This document shows positions 2,609 through 62,378 of a stretch of DNA of 64,000 nucleotides, piece after piece. Under the pieces are notes generated by a model. That model saw only the letters and a list, made by a program, of their open reading frames with translations. It had not been told where the DNA came from and did no database searches. Positions within the stretch are counted from its first letter, which is position 1. Every line of letters starts with the position of its first letter. Source of the stretch: Escherichia coli (lineage in GTDB: Bacteria; Pseudomonadota; Gammaproteobacteria; Enterobacterales; Enterobacteriaceae); NCBI RefSeq assembly GCF_044647545.1, contig NZ_CP172818.1. The stretch is one strand, 5' to 3'. The position numbers and the translations under genes are program-made.

Positions 2609-3802
2609 TTAAGACTTGGACTGTTCAGGCTGAGCACCGCTTGCGGCTTGCTGGTTATTATCAGCGGTAACTTCTTGTGCTTTTACCTGGACACCAGGAC
2701 GCACTTTCTGCAGCCCACTTATTACTACGCGATCGCCTGCTTTCAGACCTTCTGTCACCAGCCACTTATCGCCGATAGCCTGGCTTGCAACGATCGGACG
2801 GGTTTCCACTTTGTCATCCGCGCCAACCACCAGTACGGTGGCATCGCCACGCGGCGTACGGGTTACGCCCTGTTGCGGGACTAAAATAGCGTTTGGATTA
2901 AGCCCTTCTTCCAGACGTGCACGTACGAACATACCCGGCAGCAGAGTGTGATCCGGGTTCGGGAAGATAGCGCGTAGGGTGATAGACCCGGTGGTCTGAT
3001 CAACGGTAACGTCAGAGAATTCCAGCGTACCGTCCTGCGGGAACTTAATGCCGTCACTGGTGATCAGCGACACTTTGGCTTTGCCGTTCTCTTGTTTCAG
3101 CGTGCCATTTGCCAGTTCCTGTTTCAGGCGCAGGAAGTCGTTGCTGGACTGGGTCACATCAACGTAGATCGGATCAAGTTGCTGCACGGTTGCCAGCGCA
3201 GTCGCCTGACCGTTCTGTACCAATGCGCCTTCTGTCACGTTCGACTTACCAATGCGACCGCTAATCGGAGAGGTGACTTTGGTGTAAGCCAGATTGATCC
3301 GCGCAGTTTCAACGGCAGCTTTCGCCGCAGTGACCGCAGCATTCGCCTGTTGCGCATCAGCCAGAGCCTGATCGTACTCTTGTTTACTGATGTACTGAGT
3401 ACCGAGCAGTTTCTGATAACGATTCACCGTCAATTGCGCGATATTTGCTGCAGCCTGGGCTTTCGCCAGATCACCTTTCGCACTGTCGTATGCCGCCTGA
3501 TAGGTCGCAGGATCAATCTGATAGAGAGAGACACCTGCTTCGATGTCGCTACCTTCTTTGAAATTACGCTTCAGGATAATCCCGCTAACTTGAGGACGAA
3601 CTTCTGCGATCCGGTAGGCACTGGTGCGACCCGGAAGCTCGGTTGTGATCTGCAGAGGTTCAGTTTTGACTGTTACTACGCCAACGGCGGGCATCTGCTG
3701 GCCACCTTGTTGGGCCTGTTTGTCGTCACATCCTGTTAGGGCTAAGCTGCCTGAGAGCATCAGAACGACCGCCAGAGGCGTAAACCCTCTGTTTTTGTTC
3801 AT
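2609..3802 (-). CDS. acrA: RND efflux periplasmic adaptor (membrane fusion lipoprotein) AcrA
   Basis: Track ORF 2609..3838 trimmed to internal ATG at 3802; MNKNRGFTPLAVVLMLSGSLALTGC lipoprotein signal and full-length match to AcrA as recalled; directly upstream of acrB. Confidence 0.95.
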   Translation of the reverse strand: MNKNRGFTPLAVVLMLSGSLALTGCDDKQAQQGGQQMPAVGVVTVKTEPLQITTELPGRTSAYRIAEVRPQVSGIILKRNFKEGSDIEAGVSLYQIDPATYQAAYDSAKGDLAKAQAAANIAQLTVNRYQKLLGTQYISKQEYDQALADAQQANAAVTAAKAAVETARINLAYTKVTSPISGRIGKSNVTEGALVQNGQATALATVQQLDPIYVDVTQSSNDFLRLKQELANGTLKQENGKAKVSLITSDGIKFPQDGTLEFSDVTVDQTTGSITLRAIFPNPDHTLLPGMFVRARLEEGLNPNAILVPQQGVTRTPRGDATVLVVGADDKVETRPIVASQAIGDKWLVTEGLKAGDRVVISGLQKVRPGVQVKAQEVTADNNQQAASGAQPEQSKS

Positions 3803-8089: not shown

Positions 8090-8119
8090 AAGGGCGACAT
8101 GATGCGCCCTTTATTTTTT
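8090..8119. terminator. Rho-independent terminator between convergent mscK and ybaM
   Basis: Stem AAGGGCG ... CGCCCTT followed by TTTATTTTTT immediately after the mscK stop. Confidence 0.7.
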
Positions 8120-10102: not shown

Positions 10103-12034
10103 ATGAGTTATCAGGTCTTAGCCCGAAAATGGCGCCCACAAACCTTTGCTGACGTCGTCGGCCAGGAACATGTGCTGACCGCACTGGCGAACGGCTTGTC
10201 GTTAGGGCGTATTCATCATGCTTATCTTTTTTCCGGTACCCGTGGCGTCGGAAAAACCTCTATCGCCCGACTGCTGGCGAAGGGGCTAAACTGCGAAACC
10301 GGCATTACCGCGACGCCGTGCGGCGTGTGCGATAACTGTCGTGAAATCGAGCAGGGGCGCTTTGTCGATCTGATTGAAATCGACGCCGCCTCGCGTACCA
10401 AAGTCGAAGATACCCGCGACCTGCTGGATAACGTCCAGTACGCTCCGGCGCGTGGTCGTTTCAAAGTTTATCTCATCGACGAAGTGCATATGCTGTCGCG
10501 TCACAGCTTTAACGCACTGTTAAAAACCCTTGAAGAGCCGCCAGAGCACGTTAAGTTTTTGCTGGCGACGACCGATCCACAGAAATTGCCGGTGACGATT
10601 TTGTCACGCTGTTTGCAATTTCATCTCAAGGCGCTGGATGTCGAGCAAATTCGCCATCAGCTTGAGCACATCCTCAACGAAGAACATATCGCTCACGAGC
10701 CGCGGGCGTTGCAATTACTGGCGCGCGCCGCTGAAGGCAGCCTGCGAGATGCCTTAAGTCTGACCGACCAGGCGATTGCCAGCGGTGACGGCCAGGTTTC
10801 AACCCAGGCGGTCAGTGCGATGCTGGGTACGCTTGACGACGATCAGGCGCTGTCGCTGGTTGAAGCGATGGTCGAGGCCAACGGCGAGCGCGTAATGGCG
10901 CTGATTAATGAAGCCGCTGCCCGTGGTATCGAGTGGGAAGCGTTGCTGGTGGAAATGCTCGGCCTGTTGCATCGTATTGCGATGGTACAACTTTCGCCTG
11001 CTGCACTTGGCAACGACATGGCCGCCATCGAGCTGCGGATGCGTGAACTGGCGCGCACCATACCGCCGACGGATATTCAGCTTTACTATCAGACGCTGTT
11101 GATTGGTCGCAAAGAATTACCGTATGCGCCGGACCGCCGTATGGGCGTTGAGATGACGCTTCTGCGCGCGCTGGCGTTCCATCCACGTATGCCGCTGCCT
11201 GAGCCAGAAGTGCCACGCCAGTCCTTTGCGCCCGTCGCGCCAACGGCAGTAATGACGCCAACCCAGGTGCCGCCGCAACCGCAATCAGCGCCGCAGCAGG
11301 CACCGACTGTACCGCTCCCGGAAACCACCAGCCAGGTGCTGGCGGCGCGCAAGCAGTTGCAGCGCGTGCAGGGAGCAACCAAAGCAAAAAAGAGTGAACC
11401 GGCAGCCGCTACCCGCGCGCGGCCGGTGAATAACGCTGCGCTGGAAAGACTGGCTTCGGTCACCGATCGCGTTCAGGCGCGCCCGGTGCCATCGGCGCTG
11501 GAAAAAGCGCCAGCCAAAAAAGAAGCGTATCGCTGGAAGGCGACCACTCCAGTGATGCAGCAAAAAGAAGTGGTCGCCACGCCGAAGGCGCTGAAAAAAG
11601 CGCTGGAACATGAAAAAACGCCGGAACTGGCGGCGAAGCTGGCGGCAGAAGCCATTGAGCGCGACCCGTGGGCGGCTCAGGTGAGTCAACTTTCGCTACC
11701 AAAACTGGTCGAACAGGTGGCGTTAAATGCCTGGAAAGAGGAGAGCGACAACGCAGTATGTCTGCATTTGCGCTCCTCTCAGCGGCATTTGAACAACCGC
11801 GGCGCACAGCAAAAACTGGCTGAAGCGTTGAGCACGTTAAAAGGTTCAACGGTTGAACTGACTATCGTTGAAGATGATAATCCCGCGGTGCGTACGCCGC
11901 TGGAATGGCGTCAGGCGATATACGAAGAAAAACTTGCGCAGGCGCGCGAGTCCATTATTGCGGATAATAATATTCAGACCCTGCGTCGATTCTTCGATGC
12001 GGAGCTGGATGAAGAAAGTATCCGCCCCATTTGA
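10103..12034 (+). CDS. dnaX: DNA polymerase III subunits tau (full length) and gamma (via -1 frameshift)
   Basis: 643-aa ORF MSYQVLARKWRPQTFADVVGQEHVL with Walker A GTRGVGKTS; recognised as DnaX. Confidence 0.97.
   Translation: MSYQVLARKWRPQTFADVVGQEHVLTALANGLSLGRIHHAYLFSGTRGVGKTSIARLLAKGLNCETGITATPCGVCDNCREIEQGRFVDLIEIDAASRTKVEDTRDLLDNVQYAPARGRFKVYLIDEVHMLSRHSFNALLKTLEEPPEHVKFLLATTDPQKLPVTILSRCLQFHLKALDVEQIRHQLEHILNEEHIAHEPRALQLLARAAEGSLRDALSLTDQAIASGDGQVSTQAVSAMLGTLDDDQALSLVEAMVEANGERVMALINEAAARGIEWEALLVEMLGLLHRIAMVQLSPAALGNDMAAIELRMRELARTIPPTDIQLYYQTLLIGRKELPYAPDRRMGVEMTLLRALAFHPRMPLPEPEVPRQSFAPVAPTAVMTPTQVPPQPQSAPQQAPTVPLPETTSQVLAARKQLQRVQGATKAKKSEPAAATRARPVNNAALERLASVTDRVQARPVPSALEKAPAKKEAYRWKATTPVMQQKEVVATPKALKKALEHEKTPELAAKLAAEAIERDPWAAQVSQLSLPKLVEQVALNAWKEESDNAVCLHLRSSQRHLNNRGAQQKLAEALSTLKGSTVELTIVEDDNPAVRTPLEWRQAIYEEKLAQARESIIADNNIQTLRRFFDAELDEESIRPI
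11386..11397 (+). other. dnaX: dnaX programmed -1 ribosomal frameshift site (A AAA AAG heptamer, then -1 frame GAG TGA ending gamma)
   Basis: Heptamer AAAAAAG at 11386..11392 in the correct phase (codons AAA AAG at 11387..11392), -1 frame stop TGA at 11395..11397, and a GC-rich hairpin CCGGCAGCC...GCGCGCGGCCGG starting about 6 nt downstream. Confidence 0.9.
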
Positions 12035-19333: not shown

Positions 19334-19351
19334 GTTATCGACAACCAGAAT

Positions 19352-25051: not shown

Positions 25052-25135
25052 ACACCGTCGCTTAAAGTGACGGCATAATAATAAAAAAATGAAATTCCTC
25101 TTTGACGGGCCAATAGCGATATTGGCCATTTTTTT
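25052..25135 (+). ncRNA. chiX: Hfq-dependent sRNA ChiX (MicM/SroB/RybC)
   Basis: ACACCGTCGCTTAAAGTGACGGCATAATAATAAAAAAATGAAATTCCTCTTTGACGGGCCAATAGCGATATTGGCCATTTTTTT recognised as ChiX; ends in hairpin GGCCAAT/ATTGGCC plus T-run; located between ybaK and ybaP as in K-12. Confidence 0.85.
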
Positions 25136-26089: not shown

Positions 26090-26347
26090 CGTGATCCTGC
26101 TGGCTGATTTTTTTTTCCATTCAACCCCACATCAAAAAATCCCTCTAAAATCCATACCACTTATCACAAAAGTGGACATCATTAATCCCCCCCCTTCTCT
26201 CCGTTTTCCCCCCCCCCCGAAACGAAAAAAAAAGTTTTGGAAAAAAAAAGAAATTTCCCCAAAAAAAAAAAAAAAAAAAAAAAAAAATAAAAAAGGGAAA
26301 AAAAAAAAGGAAAAAAAATTTTTTTAAAAAAAAAAAAAAAAAAAAAC
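26090..26347. other. Anomalous homopolymer-rich low-complexity tract (probable sequence/assembly artefact); not coding
   Basis: A runs longer than 25 nt, C runs of 8-10 nt and T runs; composition unlike any flanking E. coli sequence; the track ORFs here are poly-K and poly-F. Confidence 0.6.
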
Positions 26348-26379
26348 ATAGCTGTCGTATTGACGAGAAAGGTAAAACC

Positions 26380-26751
26380 ATGAAACAGGCAACAAGAAAA
26401 CCGACGACACCCGGAGATATTCTTCTCTATGAATATCTGGAACCGCTCGATTTGAAAATCAATGAGTTAGCAGAGTTACTGCATGTTCATCGTAATAGCG
26501 TCAGTGCACTGATCAATAATAATCGTAAACTCACCACTGAAATGGCATTCCGTCTGGCGAAAGTTTTTGATACCACAGTCGATTTTTGGCTAAACCTCCA
26601 GGCGGCAGTTGATCTTTGGGAAGTTGAAAACAACATGCGTACCCAGGAAGAATTGGGACGGATTGAAACAGTGGCTGAATATTTGGCACGCCGTGAAGAG
26701 CGTGCAAAAAAGGTCGCGTATATGCGCCACCCTAAAGCAGTGCATCCGTAA
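26380..26751 (+). CDS. ybaQ: XRE-family HTH protein YbaQ (HigA antitoxin-like)
   Basis: 123-aa ORF MKQATRKPTTPGDILLYEYLEPLDLKINELAELLHVHRNSVSALINNNRKLTTEMAFRLAKVFDTTVDFWLNLQAAVDLW; pattern typical of HigA-family HTH. Confidence 0.9.
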   Translation: MKQATRKPTTPGDILLYEYLEPLDLKINELAELLHVHRNSVSALINNNRKLTTEMAFRLAKVFDTTVDFWLNLQAAVDLWEVENNMRTQEELGRIETVAEYLARREERAKKVAYMRHPKAVHP

Positions 26752-26759
26752 TGATGTAC

Positions 26760-29264
26760 TTATTCCTTCGGTTTAAATCGCAGCAATCGGTTGGCGTTAC
26801 TCACTACGGTAATCGACGAGAGCGCCATTGCCGCTCCGGCAACCACCGGGTTAAGCAGCGTACCGGTGAACGGCCACAAAATACCGGCGGCGACCGGAAT
26901 ACCAATGCTGTTGTAGATAAACGCACCGAGCAGGTTCTGCTTCATATTGCGCAGCGTTGCGCGGGAAATCGCGAGCGCATCTGCAACACCCATCAGGCTA
27001 TGGCGCATCAGGGTAATCGCCGCGGTTTCAATGGCAACATCACTGCCGCCACCCATCGCAATACCGACATCCGCCTGAGCCAGCGCTGGCGCGTCGTTAA
27101 TGCCGTCGCCCACCATTGCCACCTGACGTCCTTCACTTTGCAGACGTTTGATCGCTTCGGCTTTACCGTCCGGTAGCACCCCGGCTATCACCTCATCAAT
27201 CCCTGCTTCTTTGGCGATCGCATTGGCGGTGGTTGGGTTATCCCCGGTTAGCATCACCAGACGATATCCCGCTTTATGCAGGCGTTGCAGCGCCGCCACG
27301 CTATCACTACGCAACGGATCGCGTACAGCCAGCAGGGCTACCGCTTTCCCGTCAACCGCCAGCAGCACAGGCGTTGCCCCTTGCGATGCCTGAGCTGAAA
27401 TATCTGCCTCAATCGCTTTAGTATCAACTTGCTGGTCATTTAACAGCGCCTGATTACCCAGCAATAACGCATGACCTTCAGCTTCACCGCTCACGCCCAG
27501 CCCGCGCAATGTGCGGAAACCGTTGACCTGCGGCAGCTGCATATCACCTGCTTTATCGAGGATCGCTCGTGCCAGCGGATGGCTGGAACCTTGCTCCAGT
27601 GCCGCCGCCAGACGCAATGCCTGCGCTTCATCAACATCAGCAAACGTTTTCACTGCGACAACCTGCGGCTTCCCTTCGGTCAGCGTCCCGGTTTTATCGA
27701 ACACGACGGTGTCGAGCGTACTGGCGCGTTGCAGCGCGTCAGCGTCCCGCACCAGCACGCCAAACTCAGCCGCCCGCCCGACGCCCGAAATAATCGACAT
27801 CGGCGTCGCCAGTCCCAGCGCACACGGACAGGCAATAATCAGCACCGTGGTGGCAATCACCAGGGTATAGACAATTTGCGGTGCCGGACCAAAGAAATAC
27901 CAGATTGCCGCACTGACAAGCGCAATAACCACTACTACCGGCACAAATACGGCTGAGATTTTATCCGCCAGTTGACCGATTTCTGGCTTGCTGCTCTGGG
28001 CCTGTCGCACCATGCGAATGATCCGTGACAGCGTAGTATGGCTGCCGACCGCACTGGCGCGAAACAGCACACTGCCGTCCTGTACCACTGTCCCGGCATG
28101 GACGCTATCGCCTTCGCCTTTTTGCTGCGGGATTGGTTCGCCCGTCAGCATCGCTTCATCCAGCCACGCTTCGCCCTGGGTAATTTCACCATCTACCGGC
28201 ACCCGATCACCCGTCGTCAGGCGCAGCAACATACCTGGCTGAACATCTGCCAGCGGCACGTTTTTTTCACCTTCGTTGGTGACCAGGCGCGCCGTCGGTG
28301 GGGTTAAATCGAGTAATTTCTCCAGCGCCTTAGAAGAACGCTGACGTGCGCGCGCTTCCAGCATATGACCGAGATTAATCAGACCGATAATCATCGCACT
28401 GGCTTCATAGTAAAGATGTCGCGCTTCCATCGGGAACCACTGCGGCCACAGGTTGACGCTCATTGAATAGAGCCACGCCACGCCCGTACCCAGCGCCACC
28501 AGCGTATCCATCGTCGCTGCACCGTTCAGCAGGCTTTTCCATGCGCTGCGGTAAAAATGGCCGCCGGCGAAAACCATTACCGCCAGGGTTATCAGGCCGA
28601 TAACCAACCACAGGCTGCGGTTGTCGGCGGTGACCATCATGTTATCGCCGATCATCCCCCAGACCATCACCGGGATACCCACCGCCAGTGCGACAATCGC
28701 CTGCCAGCGGAAGCGCTTCATCGTAGCGACGGCGGTTTCTTGCTGGCGCTCGCGGCGTTTAGCGTCATCTTCAATCGCTTCCGCGCCGTAGCCCGCTTTT
28801 TCCACCGCCTGCACTAAATCTTGTGGGGAGGCACTGCCCATCACCAGCGCAGTACGCTCCGCCAGGTTTACCCGTGCCTGAGTGACGCCCGGTACGCTTT
28901 GCAACGCATTTTGTACGCGGGTGACACAGCTGGCGCAGCTCATGCCGCTCAGCAGCAACTGCTGGCTGTCATCGTCATCGGCGGTCGCTGCCGGAAGCGC
29001 CTCAGAAACCGCTGTCAGTGCTTCCGACGGGATTGATGACTCCGCCAGCGGTTTAGCCTTTGGGTGGCTTACAGATGCGTCATAACCCGCTTGTTTGATG
29101 GTTTCGATCAGCTGTTCTGCACTGGCAGTCCCGGTAACGTGCGCTTCAGTGACAGACACATCCGCCTGCTCAACATCCGGGCGCTGTTCGAGACTTTCTT
29201 TCACGCGTTTAACGCAGTGACCGCAGGACAGGCCGTCCAGGGTCAGGTCGATAGTTTGTGACAT
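26760..29264 (-). CDS. copA: Cu(I)-exporting P1B-type ATPase CopA
   Basis: 834-aa ORF with two N-terminal GxxCxxC metal-binding domains (GLSCGHC, GMSCASC), CPC transmembrane motif and DKTGTLT phosphorylation site. Confidence 0.97.
29053..29064 (-). other. copA: copA programmed -1 frameshift site giving the CopA(Z) metallochaperone (slippery C CCA AAG, -1 frame GGC TAA)
   Basis: mRNA-sense CACCCAAAGGCTAAACCG at codons 67-72 of copA (plus-strand CTTTGGG at 29058..29064); -1 frame stop TAA lies immediately after the slip site. Confidence 0.75.
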
Positions 29265-31878: not shown

Positions 31879-32286
31879 ATGAACATTAGCGATGTAGCAA
31901 AAATTACCGGCCTGACCAGCAAAGCCATTCGCTTCTATGAAGAGAAGGGGCTGGTGACGCCGCCGATGCGCAGCGAAAACGGTTATCGCACCTACACGCA
32001 GCAGCATCTCAACGAACTGACCTTACTGCGCCAGGCACGCCAGGTGGGCTTTAACCTGGAGGAGAGCGGCGAACTGGTGAATCTGTTTAACGATCCGCAG
32101 CGTCATAGTGCCGACGTCAAACGTCGTACGCTGGAGAAGGTGGCGGAGATCGAACGGCATATCGAAGAACTGCAATCCATGCGCAACCAGCTACTGGCGC
32201 TGGCGAATGCCTGCCCTGGCGATGACAGCGCCGACTGCCCGATTATCGAAAATCTCTCCGGCTGCTGTCATCATCGGGCGGGGTGA
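31879..32286 (+). CDS. cueR: Cu-responsive MerR-family activator CueR
   Basis: 135-aa [42 protein letters not shown] with C-terminal [10 protein letters not shown] metal site. Confidence 0.96.
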
Positions 32287-32756
32287 TTAAAAGAAAAAAA
32301 GGCGATGACCGCACGGATAATCAGCGTTATCCCTTCTATCGCAATCACCTCAACATGCGTACCTGCACTGAGATCCTCGCTGGCGCTGACAGGCCATGAA
32401 CTGTCACCGACGCGCATATGACCACGCCCGTTGACCAGCGGAGATTCCAGAACAAAACGTCGGCCAATCAACTGCTGCCCGCGCTGGTTTAAATGACTGT
32501 CGCTGTGCTTTTGTTCGCGCACCCGCCGCGACAACCATTTCCACCACAGCCAGGCGGCGAGCAGCGTCAGGACGGCAAACATTACCCCTTGCCACTCCCA
32601 ACCCAGCGGCAGCAACCAGACCACCAGACCGGTAATCACCGCTGCCACGCCGCTCCACAACAGATAACCATTGCCGCCCAACATCTCGGCTGCCAGCAGC
32701 AAACCGCCGAGACTTAGCCAGAAAATATGTGGATGAACGACCATTAACTCCATCAT
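32271..32756 (-). CDS. ybbJ: NfeD-like inner membrane protein YbbJ (partner of QmcA)
   Basis: 161-aa ORF; start ATG overlaps the qmcA stop (ATGA); 3' end overlaps the cueR 3' end by 16 nt. Exact start not verified. Confidence 0.85.
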
Positions 32757-38316: not shown

Positions 38317-42182
<3,866 letters not shown>

Positions 42183-53976: not shown

Positions 53977-54021
53977 CTATTACCTTTAAAGCGGATGCGA
54001 TTTATATCGCATATTGACTAC

Positions 54022-54048
54022 AAAAAAAGCCACGGAATAAACCGTGGC
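54022..54048 (-). terminator. Rho-independent terminator of allE (minus strand)
   Basis: Minus-strand GCCACGG-TTTATT-CCGTGGC followed by TTTTTTT, about 40 nt after the allE stop. Confidence 0.75.
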
Positions 54049-54090
54049 AAAATCCAACATAGCTAAAAATAATCAGGCGAGTGGTATGAC

Positions 54091-62191: not shown

Positions 62192-62378
62192 GCCTGATGC
62201 GATGCTGGCGCGTCTTATCAGGTCTACAGGCGGTGTCGGAACGGTAGGCCGGATAAGGCGTTCACGCCGCATCCGGCAATCGGCACACCATGCCTGATGC
62301 GATGCTGGCGCATCTTATCAGGCCTACAGTCGGTGTTGGAACGGTAGGCCGGATAAGGCGTTCACGCCGCATGCGGCA
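62192..62378. repeat. BIME: two tandem copies of a REP-pair unit (about 87 bp each, period about 100 bp)
   Basis: Unit 1 at 62192..62278 and unit 2 at 62292..62378, each GCCTGATGCGATGCTGGCGC.TCTTATCAGG.CTACAG.CGGTGT.GGAACGGTAGGCCGGATAAGGCGTTCACGCCGCAT.CGGCA, differing at only a few positions. Confidence 0.85.

Follow-up and report, generated by a model that had tools for sequence, protein, structure and literature searches.

An intact dnaX site for programmed -1 ribosomal frameshifting in an Escherichia coli chromosomal sequence

Results

We analyzed a 64,000-nucleotide stretch of Escherichia coli chromosome (hereafter the window) and confirmed that one site within it is a textbook case, the E. 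coli dnaX site for programmed -1 ribosomal frameshifting, which is intact, ordinary and already known. We put the probability that this cassette yields both gamma and tau from dnaX by programmed -1 ribosomal frameshifting at roughly 97%. It is the combined cassette, rather than the slippery heptamer or the hairpin energy alone, that exceeds chance, and the decisive observation is its match to Rfam family RF00382, the DnaX ribosomal frameshifting element. The match occupies positions 11367-11431 on the + strand (the strand of all dnaX features of the window described below), scores 96.8 bits (E = 5.8e-20) against a gathering score of 35, and spans model positions 1-65 of 65. The gene, the heptamer phase, the -1 stop, the AGGGAG element, the stem-loop and the covariance score are all those of a member of this family.

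The earlier note on this DNA, written by a first-stage reader to whom the recoding signal was recognisable from the raw sequence, had called it the classic dnaX site and proposed a comparison with the published cassette. That comparison gives 65 of 65 nucleotides identical to K-12 MG1655: the AGGGAG element, the 10-nt spacer, the heptamer A AAA AAG, the GAG UGA codons and the interrupted 11-bp hairpin are all the same, the codon numbers and the 431-aa product are shared, and the two genes differ only outside the cassette. Over the whole of dnaX there are 28 nucleotide differences from K-12, which produce two residue changes (Q417K and M578T); none of the 28 falls within 11352-11481. Of 5423 complete E. 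coli genomes, 5372 carry the 65-nt cassette at an identity of 99% or more, and RefSeq already labels it a 'DnaX frameshifting element' there. Several E. coli genomes have a dnaX that is 100% identical to the one in the window, and in NZ_CP033850, where this is also the case, PGAP annotates the same 65-nt span as 'DnaX frameshifting element'. Neither an out-of-phase heptamer nor a missing stem, the two findings that the note had named as fatal to its reading, emerged on computation.

The host gene can be assigned by its sequence to dnaX, which encodes DNA polymerase III tau/gamma. The tau open reading frame runs from ATG to TGA at 10103-12034 (1932 nt including the stop, 643 aa), and its product scores 982 bits on the NCBIfam model NF005942, 'DNA polymerase III subunit gamma/tau' (cut-off 613). 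The tau chain of PDB entry 8gj0 (8gj0_B) aligns to this product along its full length. The gene order at the locus is priC, ybaN, apt, dnaX, ybaB, recR, htpG. The window as a whole is E. coli chromosome, colinear with K-12 MG1655 from position 481818 onward at about 98% identity, and strain FDAARGOS_497 is near-identical to it.

A AAA AAG, the slippery heptamer, occupies 11386-11392 and comprises the third base of codon 428, the AAA of codon 429 and the AAG of codon 430. The earlier note had placed it in phase at codons 429-430, and both direct reading and a script bear this out: relative to the ATG at 10103, the heptamer starts at a third codon position (offset mod 3 = 2), as the X XXY YYZ phase demands. 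Only one of the six X XXY YYZ heptamers in dnaX, the one at 11386-11392, is in this phase. Two further copies of AAAAAAG in the gene, at 11516 and 11594, were set aside; there the frame reads AAA AAA G, out of slippery phase. The heptamer by itself is not significant, because AAAAAAG occurs 26 times in the window against about 15 copies expected.

In the -1 frame, the heptamer is followed by GAG (11392-11394; Glu431 of gamma) and a UGA stop (11395-11397), so that gamma ends one residue past the shift; the note had read these two codons in this way, and direct reading and the script agree. The gamma coding region thus extends over 10103-11397, in the zero frame up to 11392 and with base 11392 re-read in the -1 frame, and specifies 431 aa. 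Script translation of the predicted -1 product gives 431 aa with the C-terminus RVQGATKAKKE before the stop. The gamma chain in PDB (8giy_B, 431 aa, ending in KAKKE and including Glu431) is the same as this predicted product except for the strain polymorphism Q417K. Residue 431 is informative about the frame: it is Glu in the -1 frame only, and the zero frame encodes Ser431. The two-piece joined gamma CDS of the K-12 RefSeq record is 1295 nt long, and its last base is equivalent to position 11397 of the window. The annotation of the window should accordingly list, beside tau, a gamma CDS in two pieces, 10103-11392 joined to 11392-11397.

Downstream of the heptamer lies the stimulatory hairpin (11398-11427), with 11 base pairs and three unpaired bases in both the Rfam consensus and the minimum free energy (MFE) fold. 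Its 5' arm, ACCGGCAGCCGC, occupies 11398-11409, its loop, UACCC, 11410-11414, and its 3' arm, GCGCGCGGCCGGU, 11415-11427. A lower helix of 6 bp pairs 11398-11403 with 11422-11427, and an upper helix of 5 bp pairs 11405-11409 with 11415-11417 and 11419-11420, leaving A11404, C11418 and G11421 unpaired. Counting from the heptamer, 5 nt precede the A-U closing pair and 6 nt the first C-G pair; the claim in the note of a GC-rich stem beginning about 6 nt downstream is therefore sound, with both arms found and a spacer of 5-6 nt. The 30-nt hairpin has an MFE of -18.0 kcal/mol, and the structure given by RNAfold is the Rfam consensus structure.

Folding energy gives a less distinct picture. The note had proposed folding of 11393-11440, and in these 48 nt the stem does form, but with an energy no better than that of shuffled sequences (z = -0.73). 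For the 30-nt hairpin, z = -2.06 and 8 of 200 shuffles are equally good. As a significance test, energy alone is uninformative in so GC-rich a region, and for this reason we relied on the covariance model and on comparative data.

The third signal is an internal Shine-Dalgarno-like element, AGGGAG, found at 11370-11375 inside the RF00382 match and separated from the heptamer by exactly 10 nt (11376-11385). AGGGAG is reported to act as a frameshift stimulator (PMC5389563, PMC5009743). The earlier note was right in each of the features that it gave for the site, but it omitted this third known stimulator, which lies upstream of the interval it had described.

To compare the cassette across species, we scanned one genome per species with the pattern AGGGAG-N10-AAAAAAGAGTGA, which returned at least 120 loci. 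Because the pattern itself fixes AGGGAG, the heptamer and GAGTGA, the hairpin region is the sole unbiased test of conservation. At least 77 loci come from other enterobacterial species and have the heptamer in phase within a homologue of dnaX whose amino-acid identity is 67-99%; among the in-phase dnaX matches listed, the genera include Citrobacter, Enterobacter, Kosakonia, Kluyvera, Pluralibacter, Pantoea, Erwinia, Mixta, Serratia and Buttiauxella. Among the matches listed, 43 loci are not dnaX and were discarded as unrelated; most are from Collinsella. In that genus (loci L005, L006, L015 and others) the pattern occurs in at least about 35 near-identical species bins, where it consists of a Shine-Dalgarno sequence and the GTG with which an unrelated ORF of about 450 aa (VPKKSESTG...) begins.

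The hairpin is present at the same offset in 61 of the 62 unique cassettes among the matches listed, with energies from -18 to -30 kcal/mol. When the E. coli structure is imposed on the aligned sequences, 86.6% of cells are paired, compared with no more than 52.6% after a shift of the 3' partners by 1-3 columns, and none of 500 column shuffles matches the observed covariation score. The lower helix, CCGGC/GCCGG, shows essentially no variation in the 70 enterobacterial sequences among the matches listed. Its closing pair is A-U or G-C in a ratio of 45:22 of the 70 sequences among the matches listed, and a Mixta species shows one double change, from G-C to A-U, within this helix. Within the lower helix, the synonymous third positions 11401, 11422 and 11425 do not vary in any of the 70 sequences among the matches listed; at unpaired third positions nearby, the majority frequency averages 0.64. 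This invariance of synonymous hairpin sites indicates selection on RNA structure over and above the coding sequence.

The other Enterobacterales (Citrobacter, Enterobacter, Kosakonia, Pantoea, Erwinia, Serratia, Mixta and Buttiauxella) share with E. coli the Shine-Dalgarno-like element, the heptamer and the -1 stop, and they carry the lower helix CCGGC/GCCGG at the E. coli offset. They also differ from it. The closing pair is G-C in the Pantoea/Erwinia group, whereas it is A-U in E. coli. The upper helix is a bulged 5-bp helix in the Escherichia group, closed in E. coli by a UACCC loop; elsewhere it takes the form GCGC/GCGC, and its loops measure 3-8 nt. This change of register between genera explains why, in about half of them, pairs 41-51 and 42-50 of the E. 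coli register count as unpaired.

One cassette departs from the common form. In Candidatus Pantoea persica (locus L055, about 2954-3045 on the - strand) the canonical hairpin is mostly deleted, so that GCCGGCAGCGUCGGC remains, and AGGGAG, A AAA AAG and the -1 UGA are still in place. It is the sole cassette without the standard stem, one of the 62 unique cassettes among the matches listed.

A longer helix appears when 91 nt around the site are folded as a single sequence: 11360-11369 (CAGCGCG-GC) pairs with 11435-11443 (GC-UGCGCUG), enclosing the cassette (z = -1.9). This helix is missing from the RNAalifold consensus of the 70 enterobacterial sequences among the matches listed, and in the Pantoea/Erwinia group its 5' side is unrelated sequence. 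It would also be expected to clash with a shifting ribosome, because its 5' strand abuts the duplex between the Shine-Dalgarno-like element and the anti-Shine-Dalgarno sequence. On these three grounds we rejected it as part of the signal. That it might be an undescribed extra control on the tau:gamma ratio seems to us highly improbable; if it were one, it could tune the availability of the hairpin or of the Shine-Dalgarno-like element in dnaX mRNAs of the Escherichia/Citrobacter type.

Discussion

The identity of the cassette to that of K-12, together with published experiments (PMC5009743, PMC5389563, PMC7282821), supports the view that both tau and gamma are probably made in this strain. In the mechanism that we favor, a ribosome on A AAA AAG would hold two tRNA-Lys, with AAA in the P site and AAG in the A site. 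The hairpin (11398-11427) would then stand at the mRNA entry channel and hinder translocation, and AGGGAG would pair with 16S rRNA at its anti-Shine-Dalgarno end. A large share of the ribosomes would slip back by one base, with both tRNAs re-pairing on AAA AAA; for these, GAG (Glu) would be the next codon and UGA the stop, giving the 431-aa gamma. Ribosomes that do not slip would stay in the zero frame and produce the 643-aa tau with its extra C-terminal domains. Nothing in the sequence speaks against this mechanism.

For this strain, we infer the slip, its efficiency and its kinetic route from experiments that others have published with an identical sequence. In E. coli a single tRNA-Lys, whose U34 is modified, reads AAA as well as AAG, making A AAA AAG especially slippery, and about 50% of ribosomes shift in vivo, terminating one codon later (PMC5009743). 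Frameshifting in vitro is 84% with the three signals intact, about 2% when the heptamer is changed to G AAG AAG, about 20% when the hairpin is deleted and about 50% when AGGGAG is mutated (PMC5389563); another study reports an in vitro shift of about 60% with the hairpin versus about 25% without it (PMC7282821). Slippage takes place mainly while both tRNA-Lys are being translocated, and a slower, one-tRNA route is used under aminoacyl-tRNA limitation (PMC6771820).

Could gamma arise instead before translation, through RNA polymerase slipping on the stretch of A residues, with mRNAs carrying an extra or a missing A then being read normally? The cassette does contain a run of six A (11386-11391), and transcriptional slippage is the documented route to gamma in Thermus: dnaX of Thermus thermophilus likewise gives tau and a shorter gamma, but by this other means (PMC5009743). 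Productive transcriptional slippage, however, is described for A or T runs with a length of about 9 (PMC5009743), and the run of 6 in the dnaX of the window is too short. A conserved hairpin and a Shine-Dalgarno-like element at fixed spacings are directed at the ribosome and would have no role in polymerase slippage. Moreover, defined dnaX mRNAs translated in vitro give 60-84% frameshift product (PMC7282821, PMC5389563). We regard this origin of gamma as very unlikely here. Still less credible is a cassette that is conserved yet idle in this strain, with gamma absent or produced by proteolysis of tau, as it is in Caulobacter crescentus, whose dnaX likewise gives tau and a shorter gamma (PMC5009743): the sequence is identical to the K-12 cassette with demonstrated frameshifting (PMC5009743), the hairpin's synonymous sites are invariant across genera, which argues for selection at the RNA level, and the structural gamma chain 8giy_B ends in Glu431, a frameshift-specific end, since the zero frame would leave Ser431 at that place.

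Ribosomal frameshifting at dnaX sets the tau:gamma ratio in the clamp-loader of DNA polymerase III, and the dnaX site is a main model system for -1 programmed frameshifting. An intact copy in one more E. coli strain adds no new knowledge about it.

Other features of the window

The window contains a second known recoding site, in copA (26760-29264, - strand). Its heptamer, C CCA AAG at 29064-29058 (- strand), is in X XXY YYZ phase, and the -1 frame leads to the 70-aa CopA(Z) copper chaperone, which ends in HPKG followed by the stop, in agreement with the joined CDS annotated in K-12. Like dnaX, copA is a cellular E. coli gene in which an in-phase heptamer, a -1 slip and an early stop give a truncated second product; unlike dnaX, it has C CCA AAG as its heptamer, a shift near the 5' end and a product of only 70 aa.

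Between ybaP and ybaQ, at 26090-26350 (+ strand), the sequence decays progressively into poly-A, poly-C and poly-T, and a perfect match resumes abruptly at about 26347. Alignment with FDAARGOS_497 places this interval over a gene for a RelE/ParE-family (HigB-like) toxin just upstream of ybaQ (HigA antitoxin); K-12 is without this toxin gene. Within the first 32 kb, 82 of the 115 differences from FDAARGOS_497 are in this interval, which looks like low-quality sequence or an assembly artefact over the toxin gene and not like biology. Small deletions of 2-19 nt relative to FDAARGOS_497, all intergenic, are found at 8099-8104, 15846, 19342-19349 and 26720-26721, and may reflect compressions during the sequencing of REP-like, GC-rich repeats. 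Otherwise, besides these small deletions, the sole difference from FDAARGOS_497 is one substitution, at 28340.

At 40701-40990 the window lacks the rhsD-ybbC-ylbH-ybbD region that K-12 has at 522804-530048 (about 7.2 kb), and ybbP nearly adjoins selU/mnmH, as it does in FDAARGOS_497. At 32286-32300, between cueR and ybbJ, FDAARGOS_497 has an island of about 2.5 kb encoding a YadA-family adhesin and hypothetical proteins; this island is absent from both the window and K-12. Three RNA families also score above their Rfam gathering scores, all on the + strand: sroB (the ChiX sRNA of K-12) at 25052-25135, STnc480 at 54018-54084, and naRNA4, a REP-derived nucleoid-associated RNA, at 62247-62324.
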